NCBI GenBank assembly: GCA_018816945.1 | Contig: JAHIVC010000069.1 | Span: forward strand, 37,339-101,338 | Length of the DNA: 64,000 nt | Direction of reading: 5' to 3' | From: Bacteroidota bacterium | GTDB lineage: Bacteria; Bacteroidota; Bacteroidia; Bacteroidales; GCA-2711565 | Shown here: piece after piece, positions 2,714 to 56,056 of the stretch | Layout: the number at the start of each line of letters is the position of its first letter | Position numbering within the stretch: position 1 is the stretch's first letter | Made by a program: the position numbers and the translations under genes | The notes under the pieces: generated by a model | What the model was told of the DNA's origin: nothing | The model's input: only the letters and a program-made list of their open reading frames with translations | Database searches by the model: none

Positions 2714-3484
2714 TCATTTTAAACCTTCCATAACCCTTGCCCAATCAAAGGCAGGGCCTAAATCCCATTTTCCATTCGGGCGGAAATTGATGTGACTTAA
2801 AATCCCTTTGAACGAATTTGCATCAGAAGTATTTAGAACTTCATATCGCTTATCTTCAGCTAAAAATGTTCGGGGAATATTATATCTGGCCGTTAGGTAC
2901 CTTAGAAGCAGAATAATGCTGTCGTACTGTTCATTGGTGAATGAAGCAAAATAGTTTTGTCCACGGAAACCTGCTTGAATAAGAGTATAATACTCCACAT
3001 CTGATAGATTACAGTAATCATCAGTATTGCTATAAACTGTGACCAAACGATCATCAATTTTTTTTAAGTAGCCAATATTGGAAATCTCAATGGCTATGGT
3101 TTTTTTACTCATATTACTGTTACCTCCAACAGTTCCGGGGCCTAAATGATAGGACCAGTATTTTGAGGACCAAAGATTGAATATTTTGCCGCTCCGTCCA
3201 ATTATAAATGGAACAGAAACATGACTATTTGGACTTGTCATGGTTGAGATATCTCCTTTCAAATAACCTGCCGTAAAATGCAGAACAATCTTTTCCTTTT
3301 TGATTTCGTTTTTGTAGAAAAAAGATTCATCATTATTTTCTAAACGGCATTCGGTGTAGTTCAAGGATAAGTTTTCACCAACTATCGGAATATTGACCGG
3401 CTTTAGAATATGTTTTTTCCCTTGTGAATCTAGTCCTGAGGTTTGAAATGAATTCTCGTGATCTGCGATTGATGATGCTTTCAT
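2714..3484 (-). CDS. N-acetylmuramoyl-L-alanine amidase domain protein (amidase_2/PGRP-like)
   Basis: 256 aa. Motifs HFTAGY, HLGPG and IAIEISNIGYL resemble the AmpD/PGRP-type zinc amidase fold. No obvious signal peptide. Confidence 0.55.
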   Translation of the reverse strand: MKASSIADHENSFQTSGLDSQGKKHILKPVNIPIVGENLSLNYTECRLENNDESFFYKNEIKKEKIVLHFTAGYLKGDISTMTSPNSHVSVPFIIGRSGKIFNLWSSKYWSYHLGPGTVGGNSNMSKKTIAIEISNIGYLKKIDDRLVTVYSNTDDYCNLSDVEYYTLIQAGFRGQNYFASFTNEQYDSIILLLRYLTARYNIPRTFLAEDKRYEVLNTSDANSFKGILSHINFRPNGKWDLGPAFDWARVMEGLK

Positions 3485-10680: not shown

Positions 10681-13600
10681 CTATTTATGAAGTTGTTCAT
10701 TAATTTTAAATAGCAACAATTGTTTGTTAATCGGTTTGCTTATATGATCGGAACAACCACAAGCTAAGGCTTTAATTCTGTCAGCTTCGGTAATGTATGC
10801 TGTTTGGGCAATTATGGGTAATTCAGGCTTAAATTCTCTTATCTGTTTTGTGGCTTCGTAACCATCCATCTCAGGCATTTTAAGATCCATCAACACCAAA
10901 TCAATATGCGGGTTAAATTTACATAACTTAACAGCTTCAAGGCCATTTTCAGCCCTGATAATGTTTATTCCAGAATGCGACAACATTTCTTCCAAAACCA
11001 TAAAATTAGAGTCCTGATCTTCAGCGATCAATAATGTTTTAGTGGTATTAAATCCAAAATTCAATCCCTTGATGGAGGGTATTTCAGGTAATTTTTTCGG
11101 ATTTGTATTTTTGTATGGAATGGTAAAATAGAATACTGAACCTTTACCCAATTCGGAAGTTAACCACATTTTACCGCCAAGCATTTCAACATAGGCTTTT
11201 GAGATAGACAGACCCAATCCAGAACCGCCAAAATTTCGTGTAGCGGTGGTTTCAACCTGACGAAATCGATCAAATATTATTTTTTGCATATCCAAATGAA
11301 TACCTATACCTGAATCTTCCACATAAAATTCCAATTGGCTGTCTTTTACCTTATAGCCGTAGTTGATATAACCATGTTGGGTAAATTTAAGGGCATTGCT
11401 TATAAGATTGGTGAGTATTTGCGTTAGTTTGGTTGCATCGGTAATAATAATTGCCTGATCATCGGTTAATCTGGATTTCAAACTAAGCCTAACATTCTTT
11501 TCACTGGCTTTTGAGGAGAATTGCTCTTTTATAAGGTCACATACTAAATTAATGTTAATTTCATTTTTCTGAATTTTTTCCTGCCCGGCCTCAATAGAGG
11601 AAATTCGAATTATATCATCAATAATGGCAAGCAACTGATCGCTGCTTTGAAGGATGATATCGGTAAATTCCTGGCGTTTTTTTGGTTTCAAGTCAGGGTC
11701 GTTAAGAAATCCTGAAAAGCCCATTATGGCATTCAAGGGAGTTCTGATTTCGTGCGAAACATTATTCAGGAAAGCGGTTTTTAGGCGGTCGCTTTCCTCG
11801 GCTCTTTCCTTGGCTTTGATCAATTCGTTTTCTAATTTTTTTCGTTCTGAAATATCGCGGCAACTGCCGTAAATCCATCCATTGGGAAGCTGAACGGTAT
11901 TCAGGTCTGTGTCTACATAGCTCCCGTCTTTCTTCACAAGTTCTATCTCGGAATAGGAACTGCCGGTTATAAACAATTGCTGAAAGATTTGAAAATACTC
12001 TTCCATTCTGTTTTTGGGTGTTATATCGGCAATTGTAAACTTCAGTAATTCTTCCTTTGAATAACCCAATAAATCAACAGCCTGTTTGTTGACGTATATG
12101 TATTTGCCTTCTTTATCGGTAATGAAAATTGCATCAGCGGAGTTCTCGGTAATTGTCTTGAATTTTTCTTCGCTTTCTTTAAGTTTATTTTCAGAATTTT
12201 TTCGTTCGGTTATATCGGTTGCAACACCAATAAGTCCTAATATTTTATTGTCTTTGTCCTTTACAACGGTTGTTGAAAGGTAAACAGGGAATTCGCTCCC
12301 ATTTTTTCTTTTGTTAAATAGCTCACCATGCCATTCACCTCTAATTGTGGCGGGTAGAATTTCACTAACCTGGTTCTGCTCATTTTTAGTAGAATGCACC
12401 AAACTAATTGGTTTCCCAATCAACTCTTTAAGCTTATAGCCATAATTATCTAAAAACGCTTGGTTCACGAAAATGATTTTATCCTCCAGATCGGTAATGC
12501 TTACACATTCATTTATACTCTTCAACGAATGAGCAAGCATTGCGATTTCTTTTTCTGCCTGTTTTTGCCCAGAGATGTCTCTTGCTATACCCAATACGAT
12601 ACTTTGATCCTGTATTTTTATTGGGTACGTGCTGATTTCAACCGTTATTTCTGAACCATTTTTATTATTTATTACAAATTCATCGGGACCGGTAGCCTTG
12701 CCCAATAAATTTTTACCAAGTAGCACAGATGCTTTTGAGAGTTGAATCGGAGAAATGAGTTTTAACTTAAAAAAACTTTTCCCAATCAGCTCAATTTTAC
12801 TATAGCCCAGCATTTTAACTGCTGCAATATTGCCGTCGATAAATGTACCTTTCAGGTCAGTCAGATAATAAGCATCCGGTGCGTAATCAAATAAAATCTT
12901 AAATCTTTCTTCAGAATTTTTCAATTTCTCCTCTGCCTGCTTCCGTTCGGTAATGTCTCGCCCAATTCCCAGAATACCTAGAACTGTTCCGTCTGAATCG
13001 TATAAAGGGGTTTTGATGGTATCCAGAAAGGCGCGATGTCCATTGTTAGCAAAGGTAACCCACTCTTCGTTGCTGGTCGGTTTACCTGCCTCTATAGCTT
13101 TTTGGTCATTTTCGCGAAAAAAGTCGGCCAATTCCCGGTCAACAAAATCATAATCGGTTTTACCAATGATGTCAGCTTCAATTGCTCCAAAAAAACGTTC
13201 GAACATCGGATTGCACGAGAGGAACACTCCATTCGTATCTTTTAGCCAGATTAAATCGGGGATAGTATTCACAAGTGTGCGGAGGTGAGATTCACTCTTT
13301 CGCAGTGCCAACTCCGATTGCCTTCGATTTGTTATATCCTGTGAAATTGTTGCAATAATATTTTTTCCTTCCTCATCCAGAATACGCGACGAATTCCACA
13401 AAACTGTTTTGATATGATTGTCTTTTGTTAAAATGTCTATTTCATCAATATCTTGTTCATCGTCAAGATGATTTTTTAGCAATTCAAGTGTTGCAGCAAT
13501 TTTTTCTTTTGGAAAAAGAAAATCAATTCTTCTACCGATAACTTCAGTTGAATCATAACCGCTCAGTAATTCAAATTTGTGGTTGAAACGTTTTATTATC

Positions 13601-53917: not shown

Positions 53918-54451
53918 TTGGATAAGCATAACATCATATTGATTGCTCATGGACAATTCGAAACCAGCTTTCTGAGAGAAATAGCTGAAGAAGTAGCATT
54001 TGAGTATAATTGTTCCGTAGCTGTTCAAGAGAGTCAACTCGATTTGACGAATTTTTATGATCCTACACGCCGGCAATATGATGGGTATAAGTTACTTAAG
54101 GAAATCGAAGGAATGAATATTGCCGGTTATAATAAAAAGATTGGGTTATTTCGGGTCGATTTGTTTATCCCTATTCTCACCTATATTTTCGGTCAGGCTT
54201 TCTTTAAAGGTAATTCAGGAATTGCTTCACTTTACCGACTCAAAAATGAGCAATACGGAATGAAGACCGATCAGAATTTGCTTTTTTATCGTTTCAGAAA
54301 AGTCATCATTCATGAAATTGGTCATACTTTCGGATTGATTCATTGCCATGTTCCAAACTGTGTCATGCGATCAAGTACCTACGTGGAGGATATTGATCAG
54401 AAGAGGAATCATTTGTGCAATAACTGCAGGGAAGAGATGATGAAACACTGA
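53918..54451 (+). CDS. Archaemetzincin-like (M54) zinc metallopeptidase
   Basis: HEIGHTFGLIHC...CVM...CNNC fits the HEXXHXXGX3CX4CXM...CXXC archaemetzincin signature. Confidence 0.75.
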   Translation: MDKHNIILIAHGQFETSFLREIAEEVAFEYNCSVAVQESQLDLTNFYDPTRRQYDGYKLLKEIEGMNIAGYNKKIGLFRVDLFIPILTYIFGQAFFKGNSGIASLYRLKNEQYGMKTDQNLLFYRFRKVIIHEIGHTFGLIHCHVPNCVMRSSTYVEDIDQKRNHLCNNCREEMMKH

Positions 54452-54660
54452 TCTTTTATTTTATTGCTGATTTGACGATATTTTTAAATTCCCCTTCGGG
54501 TGGAATTCTGACTGCTGTGTCAGGCATGTTGCGATGTCGTCGAATTAAATGGTTGAACCTGATTGCTGCAGTCAAGTTTGTAATTAAATACTACAACTTT
54601 TATTAATATTTTTTTCTATAATTGAAAAGGAATTCAAAAATGTATAACGCCGTCTTTTGG

Positions 54661-54897
54661 TTATTCTTTGCAGCTCTTATCGCAAATCGGCGGGGTGGAT
54701 GTTTTCTTACACATGCACCACATTACTTCTTGGTTTTTTTCAAAGGTAACGGCACAAGGTTTTTTACTTGTTCCTCTATGTGATCCATCGCAAAATGGTT
54801 GGGTAGAACTATTTCCGCAGGCACACCAGTGATATTCACCGGCCTCCATACTCATTAATTTAGATTGTACATCCTTTTCTTCTGGTTTATTTTTCAT
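54661..54897 (-). CDS. CDGSH-type iron-sulfur domain protein
   Basis: 78 aa with one canonical CACGNSSTQPFCDGSH motif and a second degenerate one, CMCKKTSTPPICDKSC. Confidence 0.8.
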   Translation of the reverse strand: MKNKPEEKDVQSKLMSMEAGEYHWCACGNSSTQPFCDGSHRGTSKKPCAVTFEKNQEVMWCMCKKTSTPPICDKSCKE

Positions 54898-55211
54898 AAC
54901 TAGCTGATGGTAAATTAATATTAAATTTCATTTGTATATGTTTCTGAAGTCATAGAAAAAGATTTTATTATTATATACAATTGACCTCTAAAAATCTCAA
55001 AAAGTTCTATAAAGCGAATATCGGAAAACTTAGGCCTTTTTCATAATAAAAAAACTTATATTTTATAAGATTTATTAATCCCTTTTTCCATGCTTGCCGA
55101 TCTAAAAAACTAAAAGTAAGTTGTGATTTAAATATGAATAAATTGTTGGTGATTTTGTTTATAAATTTTAAAAGCACTTGCTACAGAATGGTTTCAAGTG
55201 GCTGATTATAA

Positions 55212-55290
55212 GTGTCATGGGTAGTAATCCCGAATCATCGGGAGAACTTACGACCTTCCCGACTTCTAGTCGGGACGCGCTAACCAGATT
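55212..55290 (-). repeat. tRNA-like element, 3'-type copy 1 (pseudo-tRNA with hairpin insertion)
   Basis: The minus strand reads TGGTTAGCGCG-TCCCGACTAGAAGTCGGGA-AGGTCGTAAGTTC-[TCCCGATGATTCGGGA]-TTACTACCCATGACAC. No 5' acceptor strand. Followed by a hairpin. Confidence 0.6.
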
Positions 55291-55330
55291 TTATAAAAAA
55301 AAGAGTCTTAGCATGTTGCTAAAACTCTTA

Positions 55331-55408
55331 GTGTCATGGTGTTAATCCCGAATCTCCGGGAGAACTAACGACCTTCCCGACTTCCAGTCGGGACGCGCTA
55401 ACCAGATT
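55331..55408 (-). repeat. tRNA-like element, 3'-type copy 2
   Basis: Same architecture, with anticodon-like loop CTGGAAG and T-stem GTTA/TAAC (copy 1 has GTAA/TTAC). Followed by a hairpin plus T8. Confidence 0.6.
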
Positions 55409-55452
55409 GTATCAAAAAAAAGAGCTTCATCATCGTGTTGAAACTCTCAGTG

Positions 55453-55527
55453 TCGGGGTAGTAAGATTCGAACTTACGACCTCCTGCTCCCAAAGCAGGC
55501 GCGCTAACCGGACTACGCTATACCCCG
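55453..55527 (-). tRNA. tRNA-Pro (anticodon TGG)
   Basis: Hand-folded 75-nt cloverleaf. Acceptor CGGGGTA/TACCCCG+A, anticodon arm CCTGC-TTTGGGA-GCAGG, and T arm GTAAG-TTCGAAT-CTTAC. Followed by a hairpin plus T8 terminator. Confidence 0.9.
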
Positions 55528-55570
55528 TTTATTTTTATTTAATAAGTATTTTAAAGAACAATTTTATTTT

Positions 55571-55652
55571 CCAATCCTACGACCTTCCCGACTTCCAGTC
55601 GGGATGCGCTAACCTGATGGAGTTTATCCCGAAGATTCGGGACTATACCCCG
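55571..55652 (-). repeat. tRNA-like element, 5'-type copy A
   Basis: The minus strand reads CGGGGTATAG-[TCCCGAATCTTCGGGA]-TAAACTCCATCAGGTTAGCGCA-TCCCGACTGGAAGTCGGGA-AGGTCGTAGGATTGG. It has a 5' acceptor strand but no complete T arm or 3' acceptor. Confidence 0.6.
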
Positions 55653-55694
55653 TATATTTTTATTAATAAGTATTTTAAAGAACAATTTTATTTT

Positions 55695-55777
55695 CCAATC
55701 CTATGACCTTCCCGACTTCCAGTCGGGACGCGCTAACCGAATGGAGTTTATCCCGAAGATTCGGGACTTATACCCCG
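55695..55777 (-). repeat. tRNA-like element, 5'-type copy B
   Basis: Near-identical to copy A, and preceded by the same AT-rich spacer (ATTGTTCTTT(T)AAA..ATTATTAA..) that also precedes tRNA-Pro. Confidence 0.6.
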
Positions 55778-55826
55778 TATTTTTTTATTTTAATAATTAT
55801 TTAAAAGAACAATTCTCCTTTTGTTT

Positions 55827-55916
<90 letters not shown>

Positions 55917-56056
55917 AATAGAGGACTGCAAAAGTATAAAAAGCTTTTGTATTCACAAATGTTTTTTCCACTTTTATTCTAATTATTTTAATGTTCTTTT
56001 TAAAGTAGACATATTAAATTCTTTACGAAATTTGCATAAAATACCTGATAGAAACT

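Follow-up and report, generated by a model that had tools for sequence, protein, structure and literature searches.

Partial tRNA gene copies bearing a conserved palindrome flank tRNA genes in Bacteroidota and often adjoin a small GIY-YIG gene

Among the described systems closest to the elements considered here is SegB of phage T4, which the part of the published account drawn on here presents as a GIY-YIG homing endonuclease in a tRNA gene cluster, with a 27-bp site that includes a conserved T-psi-C stem-loop motif (PMC2330249). Partial copies of tRNA genes are also known as att-derived fragments (PMC9897764). In a stretch of 64,000 nucleotides from a Bacteroidota bacterium (contig JAHIVC010000069.1; the whole stretch is hereafter the window), an intact tRNA-Pro(TGG) gene on the minus strand is bracketed by four partial tRNA gene copies, units A to D. 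Every unit carries, exactly where the 17-nt anticodon arm would be, a 19-nt palindrome, TCCCGAC-N5-GTCGGGA, that makes a hairpin of a 7-bp stem and a 5-nt loop, and each has a second hairpin with a TCCCGA stem.

Such hairpin-plugged fragments are widespread in many organisms and are not a local oddity. It is well supported that the window units are an ancient instance, lacking an open reading frame (ORF), of a widespread family found in Bacteroidota and in at least one metagenome-assembled genome (MAG) of Ignavibacteria. No description of hairpin-plugged tRNA fragments was found in Rfam or in the full-text literature searched, and the tRNA-flanking hairpin class is apparently undescribed.

The same hairpin at unrelated tRNA genes

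A metagenome scan with TCCCGACTRGAAGTCGGGA returned 32 loci, and at about 20 of these the hairpin lies within partial copies of the adjoining intact tRNA gene (Val, Pro-GGG, Pro-TGG, Ser-TGA, Arg and others). The other 12 or so are in unrelated contexts, a number that by our rough estimate is near what an 18-base pattern would match by chance. The 19-nt hairpin takes the exact place of the native 17-nt arm, with identical flanks of 8 nt on the left and 5 nt on the right, in six tRNA identities, namely Asp-GTC, Ser-TGA (class II), Pro-GGG, Pro-TGG, Val-TAC and Arg-ACG, and it is found in both orientations relative to the tRNA, with TGGAA or TTCCA as the loop. Fragments upstream of the intact gene (5'-type units) are truncated at the 3' end and stop at the 5' strand of the T-stem or at GGTTC, and fragments downstream (3'-type units) are truncated at the 5' end and begin in the D-loop at GGTT. 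Units of either type may be amplified in tandem, as evidenced by four 5'-type units at locus L030 and four 3'-type units at L033; L028 has two units after tRNA-Ser(GCT), like the window, and at L035, L036, L037 and L045 units lie on both sides of the intact tRNA gene.

A scan of species-representative genomes used a narrow pattern (loop TRGAA plus an AGG flank) and gave one locus, L002, a result that is uninformative on rarity. In this Ignavibacteria MAG, the locus comprises tRNA-Val, a 5' fragment of tRNA-Asp with the identical 19-mer as its anticodon arm, a small ORF and the intact tRNA-Asp gene. Viral contigs scanned with both hairpin patterns gave no match, and there is therefore no evidence for a phage vector.

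Palindromes were also seen in other arrangements. At L031 (130-330) and L029 (210-330), full-length pseudo-tRNAs carry several different palindromic insertions, located in the D-loop, the anticodon arm, the T-loop and even the acceptor 3' strand (for instance CCTGCCTG...CAGGCAGG), and at L029 a long hairpin is nested within the TCCCGA/TCGGGA stem. Four GC-rich contigs (L003, L010, L011 and L018), three of them from one assembly, carry the identical 19-mer outside any tRNA context, as GTCATGAAC-hairpin-GCTTG, which may represent an unrelated repeat family. As to the stem itself, TCCCGA(C)/(G)TCGGGA corresponds to the acceptor-stem end (N73, +1, -1) of Bacteroidota tRNA-Pro(GGG), CGGGATG...CATCCCGAC, joined the 'wrong way round' (L030 3396-3471, L020 2467-2541), and the variant CCCCGAC of L037 corresponds to the 3' end of tRNA-Pro(TGG). 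These matches may be coincidental, a 7-mer match within the tRNA set not being improbable.

A small GIY-YIG gene as the recurrent partner

In an all-against-all BLAST of the ORFs of 22 loci and the window, a GIY-YIG family was the only recurrent one, present at 10 loci, and no integrase, transposase or RAYT recurred. The original prediction, made from the letters of the window, had entertained a remnant of integrase-mediated rearrangement at a tRNA locus; this part of it is not supported, the recurrent partner being a small GIY-YIG nuclease gene. The partner protein is 80-95 aa long, carries the GIY-YIG domain PF01541 (Pfam), has the UPF0213 proteins 1zg2 and 1ywl (PDB) as its closest solved relatives, and keeps the catalytic Tyr/Tyr/Arg/His/Glu positions invariant. 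Loci of the family often carry the ORF (L002, L005, L012, L013, L015, L021, L024, L027, L035-L038, L040 and L045), and where present it always lies between the intact tRNA gene and a hairpin fragment.

In the downstream arrangement, the ORF runs on into the 3'-type fragment, and the frame is always the same, GGT TCA GAG CAT CCC GAC ... TCG GGA GGG TCG TAG. The tail of the protein is then encoded by the fragment and reads ...GSEHPDFQSGGS up to the stop, i.e. GSEHPD(FQ/WK)SGGS, or ends at ...SEHPD if there is a TAG or TGA in the loop. When P0006 was the query of an exhaustive search, 5224 clusters at 50% identity were found. Among the best 150 of the 5224 cluster representatives, 11 end in (E/G)(H/Y)PD tails with varied loops (HPDCKSGGS, HPDFTSGGS, HPDQQSGGS) and 13 begin with peptides translated from tRNA genes, and association with tRNA genes is therefore a trait of the protein family.

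The ORF may be amplified together with the fragment. At L035, a module of terminator, ORF and fragment is repeated three times in tandem with a period of 339 nt, and 5'-type units are also present; at L037, 3'-type units with and without the ORF lie side by side. At this locus (L035 2450-3800, on a 1.4-Mb contig), even the full-length tRNA-Val-like copy, which precedes the three repeats, bears the hairpin, and either another tRNA-Val(TAC) is elsewhere in that genome or the assembly has collapsed copies. At L033, a 23S_rRNA_IVP four-helix-bundle ORF (Pfam; about 11260-11820, minus strand) lies between tRNA-Ser(GCT) and tRNA-Pro(TGG), upstream of the four 3'-type units, and is another type of small gene colonising structured-RNA loci.

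Several loci (L036, L037, L038, L040 and L045) were reached via protein similarity and not via the hairpin pattern. At L036, beside tRNA-Val, the stems are identical and the loops are GAAAA and TGAAA, and at L037, beside tRNA-Arg-ACG, the hairpin is CCCCGAC-TAAAG-GTCGGGG, with one compensatory outer pair. The hairpin at L038 (tRNA-Val-GAC), L040 (tRNA-Met, with 4-5 tandem ORFs) and L045 (tRNA-Met) is instead TCCGCC-N4-GGCGGA, which takes the place of the 3' half of the anticodon arm at L040 and L045; the fragment at L038 has three insertions of it, in the D, anticodon and T regions. The proteins of the TCCGCC class (P0012, P0014 and P0015) group together, with 51% identity among themselves and 41% to the rest, and the TCCCGAC class covers proteins down to 35% identity. 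In this small sample, hairpin class tracks protein subgroup, as predicted by a specific relationship between protein and site.

Anatomy of the window locus and conservation in relatives

On the minus strand of the window, the order of features is a promoter box, tRNA-Ser(GCT), units A and B, tRNA-Pro(TGG) with its terminator, unit C with a hairpin and T8 run, and unit D with a closing hairpin (Table 1); TAnnTTTG is the known promoter consensus of Bacteroidetes. The 36-nt core GGTTAGCGCGTCCCGACTGGAAGTCGGGAAGGTCGT is present in four copies with at most one mismatch, where shuffles lead one to expect none, and TCCCGA-N4-TCGGGA is present in four copies against 0.05 expected, with none elsewhere in the 64 kb. 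All eight TCCCGA-stem palindromes of the 64 kb fall within 55212-55777. The AT-rich spacer upstream of tRNA-Pro also precedes units A and B (repeat families D1 and D3), and units A and B with their spacer form a 124-nt tandem duplication that is 88% identical (D1). It is well supported that the flanks of all four units derive from the resident tRNA-Pro and that the units are its partial duplicates, A and B being 3'-truncated copies upstream and C and D 5'-truncated copies downstream. Both types of piece overlap from the D-loop to the T-stem, each with its own arm replacement, and only terminators or spacers of 40-45 nt lie between units. The acceptor 3' strands that end units C and D are degenerate (ACCATGACAC and ACCCATGACAC, respectively). 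The extra hairpin of units A and B (loop ATCT) is the reverse complement of that of unit C (loop AGAT), one palindrome being present in both orientations, and the hairpin after unit C is a diverged duplicate of the tRNA-Pro terminator.

Most of this anatomy had been anticipated by the original prediction. Four tRNA-Pro-derived elements do surround a genuine tRNA-Pro(TGG) downstream of tRNA-Ser(GCT), and they are, as proposed, pseudo-tRNA pieces with one recurring palindrome. The 5'-type units start with the tRNA-Pro acceptor strand after that gene's AT-rich spacer, the 3'-type units end in an acceptor-like stretch followed by a hairpin, and each unit has its extra TCCCGA-N4-TCGGGA hairpin where it had been placed, at the D-arm in the 5'-type and in the T-loop in the 3'-type. 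The shared core hairpin is likewise there in its four copies, but the GGA or AGA triplet pointed out in its loop is meaningless, the loops of window and orthologous units being TGGAA, TAGAA, CAAAA, TGAAA and ATAAAAG.

Table 1. Features of the tRNA-Ser/tRNA-Pro locus and neighbouring genes in the window
Feature	Position	Strand	Remarks
Putative Bacteroidota-type -7 box TACTTTTG	55929-55936	-	Read from sequence against TAnnTTTG
tRNA-Ser(GCT)	55827-55916	-	First gene of the operon; ARAGORN call, Rfam 52.5 bits
Unit A, 5'-type	55695-55777	-	Acceptor 5' strand of tRNA-Pro CGGGGTATA; ends after T-stem 5' strand
Unit A, D-arm replacement hairpin TCCCGAATCTTCGGGA	55751-55766	-	
Unit A, 36-nt core	55703-55738		
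Unit A, anticodon-arm replacement TCCCGACTGGAAGTCGGGA	55710-55728	-	
Unit B, 5'-type	55571-55652	-	Starts CGGGGTATA
Unit B, extra hairpin	55627-55642	-	
Unit B, 36-nt core	55579-55614		
Unit B, anticodon-arm replacement hairpin	55586-55604	-	
tRNA-Pro(TGG)	55452-55527	-	Intact resident gene; ARAGORN call, Rfam 70.4 bits
tRNA-Pro intrinsic terminator	55414-55447	-	Hairpin + T8
Unit C, 3'-type	55331-55408	-	Begins in D-loop (CTGGTTAGCGCG)
Unit C, 36-nt core	55368-55403		
Unit C, anticodon-arm replacement	55375-55393	-	
Unit C, T-loop insert TCCCGGAGATTCGGGA	55346-55361	-	Interrupts T-loop
Terminator-like hairpin + T8 after unit C	55295-55328	-	13-pair stem + T-run; repeat family D6
Unit D, 3'-type	55212-55290	-	
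Unit D, 36-nt core	55250-55285		
Unit D, anticodon-arm replacement	55257-55275	-	Loop TAGAA
Unit D, T-loop hairpin TCCCGATGATTCGGGA	55228-55243	-	
Terminal hairpin GCCACTTG...CAAGTGC + TTTT	55170-55202	-	After unit D; closes the locus
zf-CDGSH gene	54650-54897	-	Neighbour
Peptidase_M54 gene	53918-54451		Neighbour

The neighbours of the locus also include CYTH and GldM genes. Homologues of the window's CYTH gene, with 70-71% protein identity, lead to the orthologous locus in two genomes of about 4 Mb (L043 and L044). The layout in both is CYTH with a divergent promoter, tRNA-Ser(GCT), one 5'-type unit, tRNA-Pro(TGG) with its terminator, and 3'-type units, two at L043 and one at L044 (two units of each type in the window). 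The terminators are homologous to those of the window, including those after tRNA-Pro, and the terminal hairpin is kept in both (AATCA...CCATTCTG...). Unit B is orthologous to the single 5'-type unit of each locus, unit C to the first 3'-type unit of L043, and unit D to the second 3'-type unit of L043 and the single one of L044. Unit A has no counterpart in either and is a lineage-specific duplicate.

Positions in the hairpin stems are identical to the window in 42 of 42 cases for L043 and 27 of 28 for L044, as compared with 11/15 and 6/10 for the loops, 69/75 in both genomes for tRNA-Pro, and 68% and 63% of the remaining aligned columns. The stem is conserved at these orthologous loci while loop and flanks diverge, and it is better kept than tRNA-Pro; beyond the hairpin and AGGTCG, the 5'-type unit of L043 and L044 is almost unrecognisable. 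Conservation in relatives was one of the checks named with the original prediction, and the persistence of the units at both loci disfavours plain decay. The units are old and not products of plain decay, and the comparison supports a palindrome that is under constraint, in units that are more than decaying duplicates.

The T-arm of the 3'-type units matches the tRNA-Pro of its own genome, GCAGG/CCTGC in L043 and L044 and GTAAG in the window; the flanks therefore undergo concerted evolution with that gene, and the hairpin is never overwritten. The T-stem swap between units C (GTTAG/TTAAC) and D (GTAAG/TTAC) had been taken as compensatory. The swap is present, but it is best explained by fragments that follow the T-stems of a resident or donor tRNA-Pro via gene conversion; the GCAGG/CCTGC of the orthologues is identical to their own tRNA-Pro. 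The extra TCCCGA hairpins of the D-loop and T-loop are confined to the window lineage and absent from L043 and L044, and analogous extra insertions are found in the T region of L015, in the D-loop of L031, and at L029 and L038.

Other features of the orthologous loci deserve mention. Between promoter and tRNA-Ser, L043 and L044 (both at about 2790-2870, minus strand) have an additional piece that resembles a T-arm, GGGCAGTTCAAATCATTCGCCTTTTGGCGGATAAACTGCC, and contains a TCGCC...GGCGG hairpin; the window lacks this piece, and its units A and B have a similar 'ATAAACTCC' after the hairpin. In a closer relative, with a CYTH gene 75% identical to that of the window (L041 1561-2862), a phage-integrase gene lies directly downstream of tRNA-Ser(GCT), and the stretch inspected showed neither tRNA-Pro nor hairpin units. 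The orthologous locus therefore also serves as an island integration site.

ARAGORN and Rfam (at the gathering threshold) recognise tRNA-Ser and tRNA-Pro alone in the window, and none of the four units passes; Rfam at E<=10 over 55100-56000 adds sub-threshold noise (rsmX, permuted tmRNA) and no unit, and Rfam on fifteen related loci finds tRNAs only. The tRNA and Rfam check suggested with the original prediction thus returns none of its units. A canonical tRNA is ruled out, with no cloverleaf above threshold and no stable 7-nt anticodon loop. A GGA-type sponge RNA of the CsrB/RsmX kind was rejected, rsmX scoring 17.2 bits against a gathering score of 56 and the loop GGA being absent from orthologues, as was a split or permuted tRNA, overlapping halves that each bear the arm replacement making no single cloverleaf. 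Each unit folds better than its shuffles (z-scores of -2.1 to -5.7). RNAalifold on eight 3'-type units finds no consensus structure apart from the hairpin, with a covariation term near 0 and one covarying pair at most, and so yields none of the covariation support for a wider fold that had been suggested as a check. Constraint acts on the sequence of the stem and not on a wider RNA fold.

The units also have consequences for annotation. Hairpin-bearing pseudo-tRNAs are called tRNA-Ser(GGA) or tRNA-Gly(TCC) by ARAGORN (L030 8482-8555, L043 2274-2342, L035 2547-2625), a systematic error that arises because the loop CTGGAAG/CTTCCAG mimics an anticodon loop; Rfam gives the hairpin-bearing copy of L035 61 bits. 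Small ORFs gain tRNA-encoded tails, and a 99-aa ORF on the plus strand of the window (55407-55706) is artefactual: it lies antisense to tRNA-Pro and to units B and C, and the 'DLPDFQSG' in it is the hairpin translated. At least one short-read contig ends within a unit: the Logan contig L001 (SRR7067315), from the same or a near-identical strain, stops exactly inside the unit A hairpin (55710-55728). Hairpin arrays therefore fragment assemblies.

A candidate selfish element, its rivals and known systems

The units may represent cis-elements and duplication scars of a family of tRNA-gene-associated GIY-YIG selfish elements, and we put the probability of this reading, the mechanism of which we infer, at about 0.5. 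GIY-YIG cassettes would live on tRNA genes in the manner of SegB, and would insert and spread by break-stimulated homologous recombination via the conserved D-loop and T-arm segments. Such recombination would leave partial duplicates whose breakpoints fall in the D-loop and in the T-stem or T-loop, as would be expected if a tRNA gene recombined, by single crossover or in a break-induced manner, with a tRNA fragment carried by an element. The recognition of a T-psi-C motif by SegB is a precedent; the 5'-type units here end at the T-stem or GGTTC. The invariant stem of the palindrome would be a cis-acting site for the nuclease or its complex, with the nuclease encoded either in cis or by another copy in the genome, and the hairpin would also prevent any fragment from acting as a tRNA. 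Arrays might grow and shrink by unequal recombination, gene conversion would keep the flanks of fragments like the resident tRNA, and ORF-less arrays such as that of the window could be maintained in trans or by some use to the host, with whatever benefit or cost to the host this may bring. A more specific version is tentative and on the doubtful side: that the conserved palindromes are specific nucleic-acid recognition sites of UPF0213/YhbQ-like stand-alone GIY-YIG nucleases, and that palindrome and nuclease form a new minimal mobile or selfish cassette that parasitises tRNA genes, duplicates tRNA segments and puts its own hairpin in the place of whole arms or loops with a precision at the level of the cloverleaf, while arrays without the ORF persist through service in trans.

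A number of points weigh against the selfish-element reading. A tblastn search for GIY-YIG over the 64-kb window found none, and no GIY-YIG gene was seen in the DNA examined at the tRNA-Pro loci L020, L025, L028, L030, L033, L043 and L044, such that action in trans must be assumed there; about half of the loci in tRNA context show no ORF in the DNA examined. Most loci were found by an exact-hairpin search, which makes the invariance of the stem at these a matter of construction, the unbiased ones being L035-L037, L038, L040 and L043-L045. Classical homing fails to explain why the adjacent intact tRNA gene is spared, and the partner proteins, at 80-95 aa, are without a DNA-binding domain, which leaves sequence-specific recognition by them an assumption. 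The exact swap of the arm in unrelated tRNAs demands a structure-aware step that has no named candidate, and the long conservation of ORF-less units at the orthologous locus would also fit a host function. The units are best classed with nuclease-associated selfish elements at tRNA genes, with a substantial chance of a distinct mechanism.

A host function is the subject of what we regard as an unlikely but serious alternative, in which the units are RNA elements that act in the processing or stability of the tRNA operon, or as a protein sponge or decoy sRNA, with GIY-YIG genes merely using them as landing sites. Homing endonucleases typically target conserved functional sequence, and the stem is better conserved than tRNA-Pro at an orthologous locus that lacks the ORF. 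With no terminator from tRNA-Ser through units A and B to tRNA-Pro, these units are probably co-transcribed, and every unit folds better than shuffles. The near absence of covariation speaks against such an RNA, however, as do a loop that varies freely and can be inverted, the position of 3'-type units behind strong T8 terminators, the erosion of the 5'-type unit outside hairpin and AGGTCG, and the lack of an Rfam match. Somewhat less probable still is that the palindrome serves a site-specific recombinase as its core site, in the anticodon-arm position that integrases usually use, and that the arrays are att accretions or mobile tRNA/GIY-YIG cassettes. The arms are indeed invariant inverted repeats around a central 5-7 nt that vary by lineage and are for the most part the same throughout an array, units in direct orientation flank the intact tRNA like attL and attR, and an integrase island occupies the same tRNA-Ser at L041. 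Yet no recombinase recurs near the hairpin loci, which have only the GIY-YIG family in common, a full att core of 19 bp would be very short, and no island DNA lies between the window repeats. Moreover, loops differ across one locus (GAAAA and TGAAA at L036, CAAAA and TGGAA at L043), which would block exchange that depends on spacer homology.

The remaining readings are far less probable. Plain decay of tandem tRNA-Pro duplicates with chance palindromic insertions, without function or mechanism, would account for units A and B as a simple tandem duplication, for the degenerate acceptor ends of units C and D, and for the erosion of non-hairpin parts in relatives, but not for the linkage of the hairpin to, and its co-variation with, one protein family. 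The identical 19-nt replacement in six tRNA identities and several lineages, and the keeping of 69/70 stem positions as compared with about 65% of neighbouring aligned columns, effectively refute it. Close to negligible is the probability that the units are functional or split tRNAs, with halves paired through complementary hairpins and an anticodon such as GGA or AGA. Here, the extra hairpin of units A and B is fully complementary to that of unit C, and the acceptor halves are complementary (inverted repeats I3-I6), but both types of half bear the arm replacement, the 7-bp stem carries a pentaloop with an unconserved 'anticodon' (CAAAA, TGAAA, TAGAA, TTCCA), ARAGORN and Rfam reject all four units, and the extra hairpins are absent from orthologues.

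Whatever their origin, some tRNA genes of Bacteroidota and their relatives are bracketed by conserved hairpin-plugged partial copies, the 14 stem bases of which are more conserved than the tRNA gene itself. That the same exact arm replacement recurs in tRNAs of unrelated identity, a class II tRNA-Ser among them, calls for a mechanism not yet described, either structure-aware or site-specific. If the selfish-element reading holds, the hairpins would be a concrete substrate for stand-alone UPF0213-type GIY-YIG nucleases, a very large family of uncharacterised function.

Each of the systems with which the units can be compared shares one aspect with them and fails on defining features. SegB is, in the part of its description drawn on here, a GIY-YIG gene among tRNA genes that drives co-inheritance with flanking tRNA DNA through recognition of the T-psi-C stem-loop motif (PMC2330249). 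The ORFs described here similarly lie directly before or after tRNA genes, and the fragment breakpoints cluster at the T-arm and D-loop. A GIY-YIG ORF adjoins the target gene at related loci and not in the window. The proteins here differ in being 80-95-aa stand-alone UPF0213-type domains without a DNA-binding domain, and the elements are chromosomal, in Bacteroidota and Ignavibacteria, and not of phage. Partial tRNA duplicates with a palindrome in place of the anticodon arm are not mentioned for SegB in that part of its description.

The att-derived tRNA fragments (PMC9897764) are likewise partial, non-canonical copies that adjoin an intact tRNA gene and may be mis-called by tRNA finders. In contrast, no integrase and no island between repeats are found here, the fragments lie on both sides of the intact gene, and the anticodon arm, which usually belongs to the duplicated att block, is precisely replaced across tRNA identities. 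In the case of type III toxin-antitoxin systems (ToxIN-like), the likeness is one of tandem structured repeats and a terminator beside a small nuclease gene, as at L035 and L045. Many loci, the window included, are without the ORF, however, and the repeats here stem from a tRNA gene and lie beside an essential one, the ORF encoding a GIY-YIG DNA-nuclease fold and not an endoRNase toxin fold. The intervening sequences of 23S rRNA resemble the units in that a longer, foreign palindromic stem takes the place of a native hairpin in a structured-RNA gene. These sequences interrupt the rRNA gene that functions, and RNase III excises them, whereas the functional tRNA gene is untouched here and the hairpin is confined to the partial copies. 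Repetitive extragenic palindromes and bacterial interspersed mosaic elements (REP/BIME) are also short GC-rich hairpins in which the stem is conserved and the loop varies, and they too lie in either orientation and at times in clusters. Unlike these, the palindromes described here are accompanied by no RAYT that was seen and are not dispersed within the 64 kb; they always occupy defined spots of tRNA-derived sequence, and their associated gene is that of a GIY-YIG protein.

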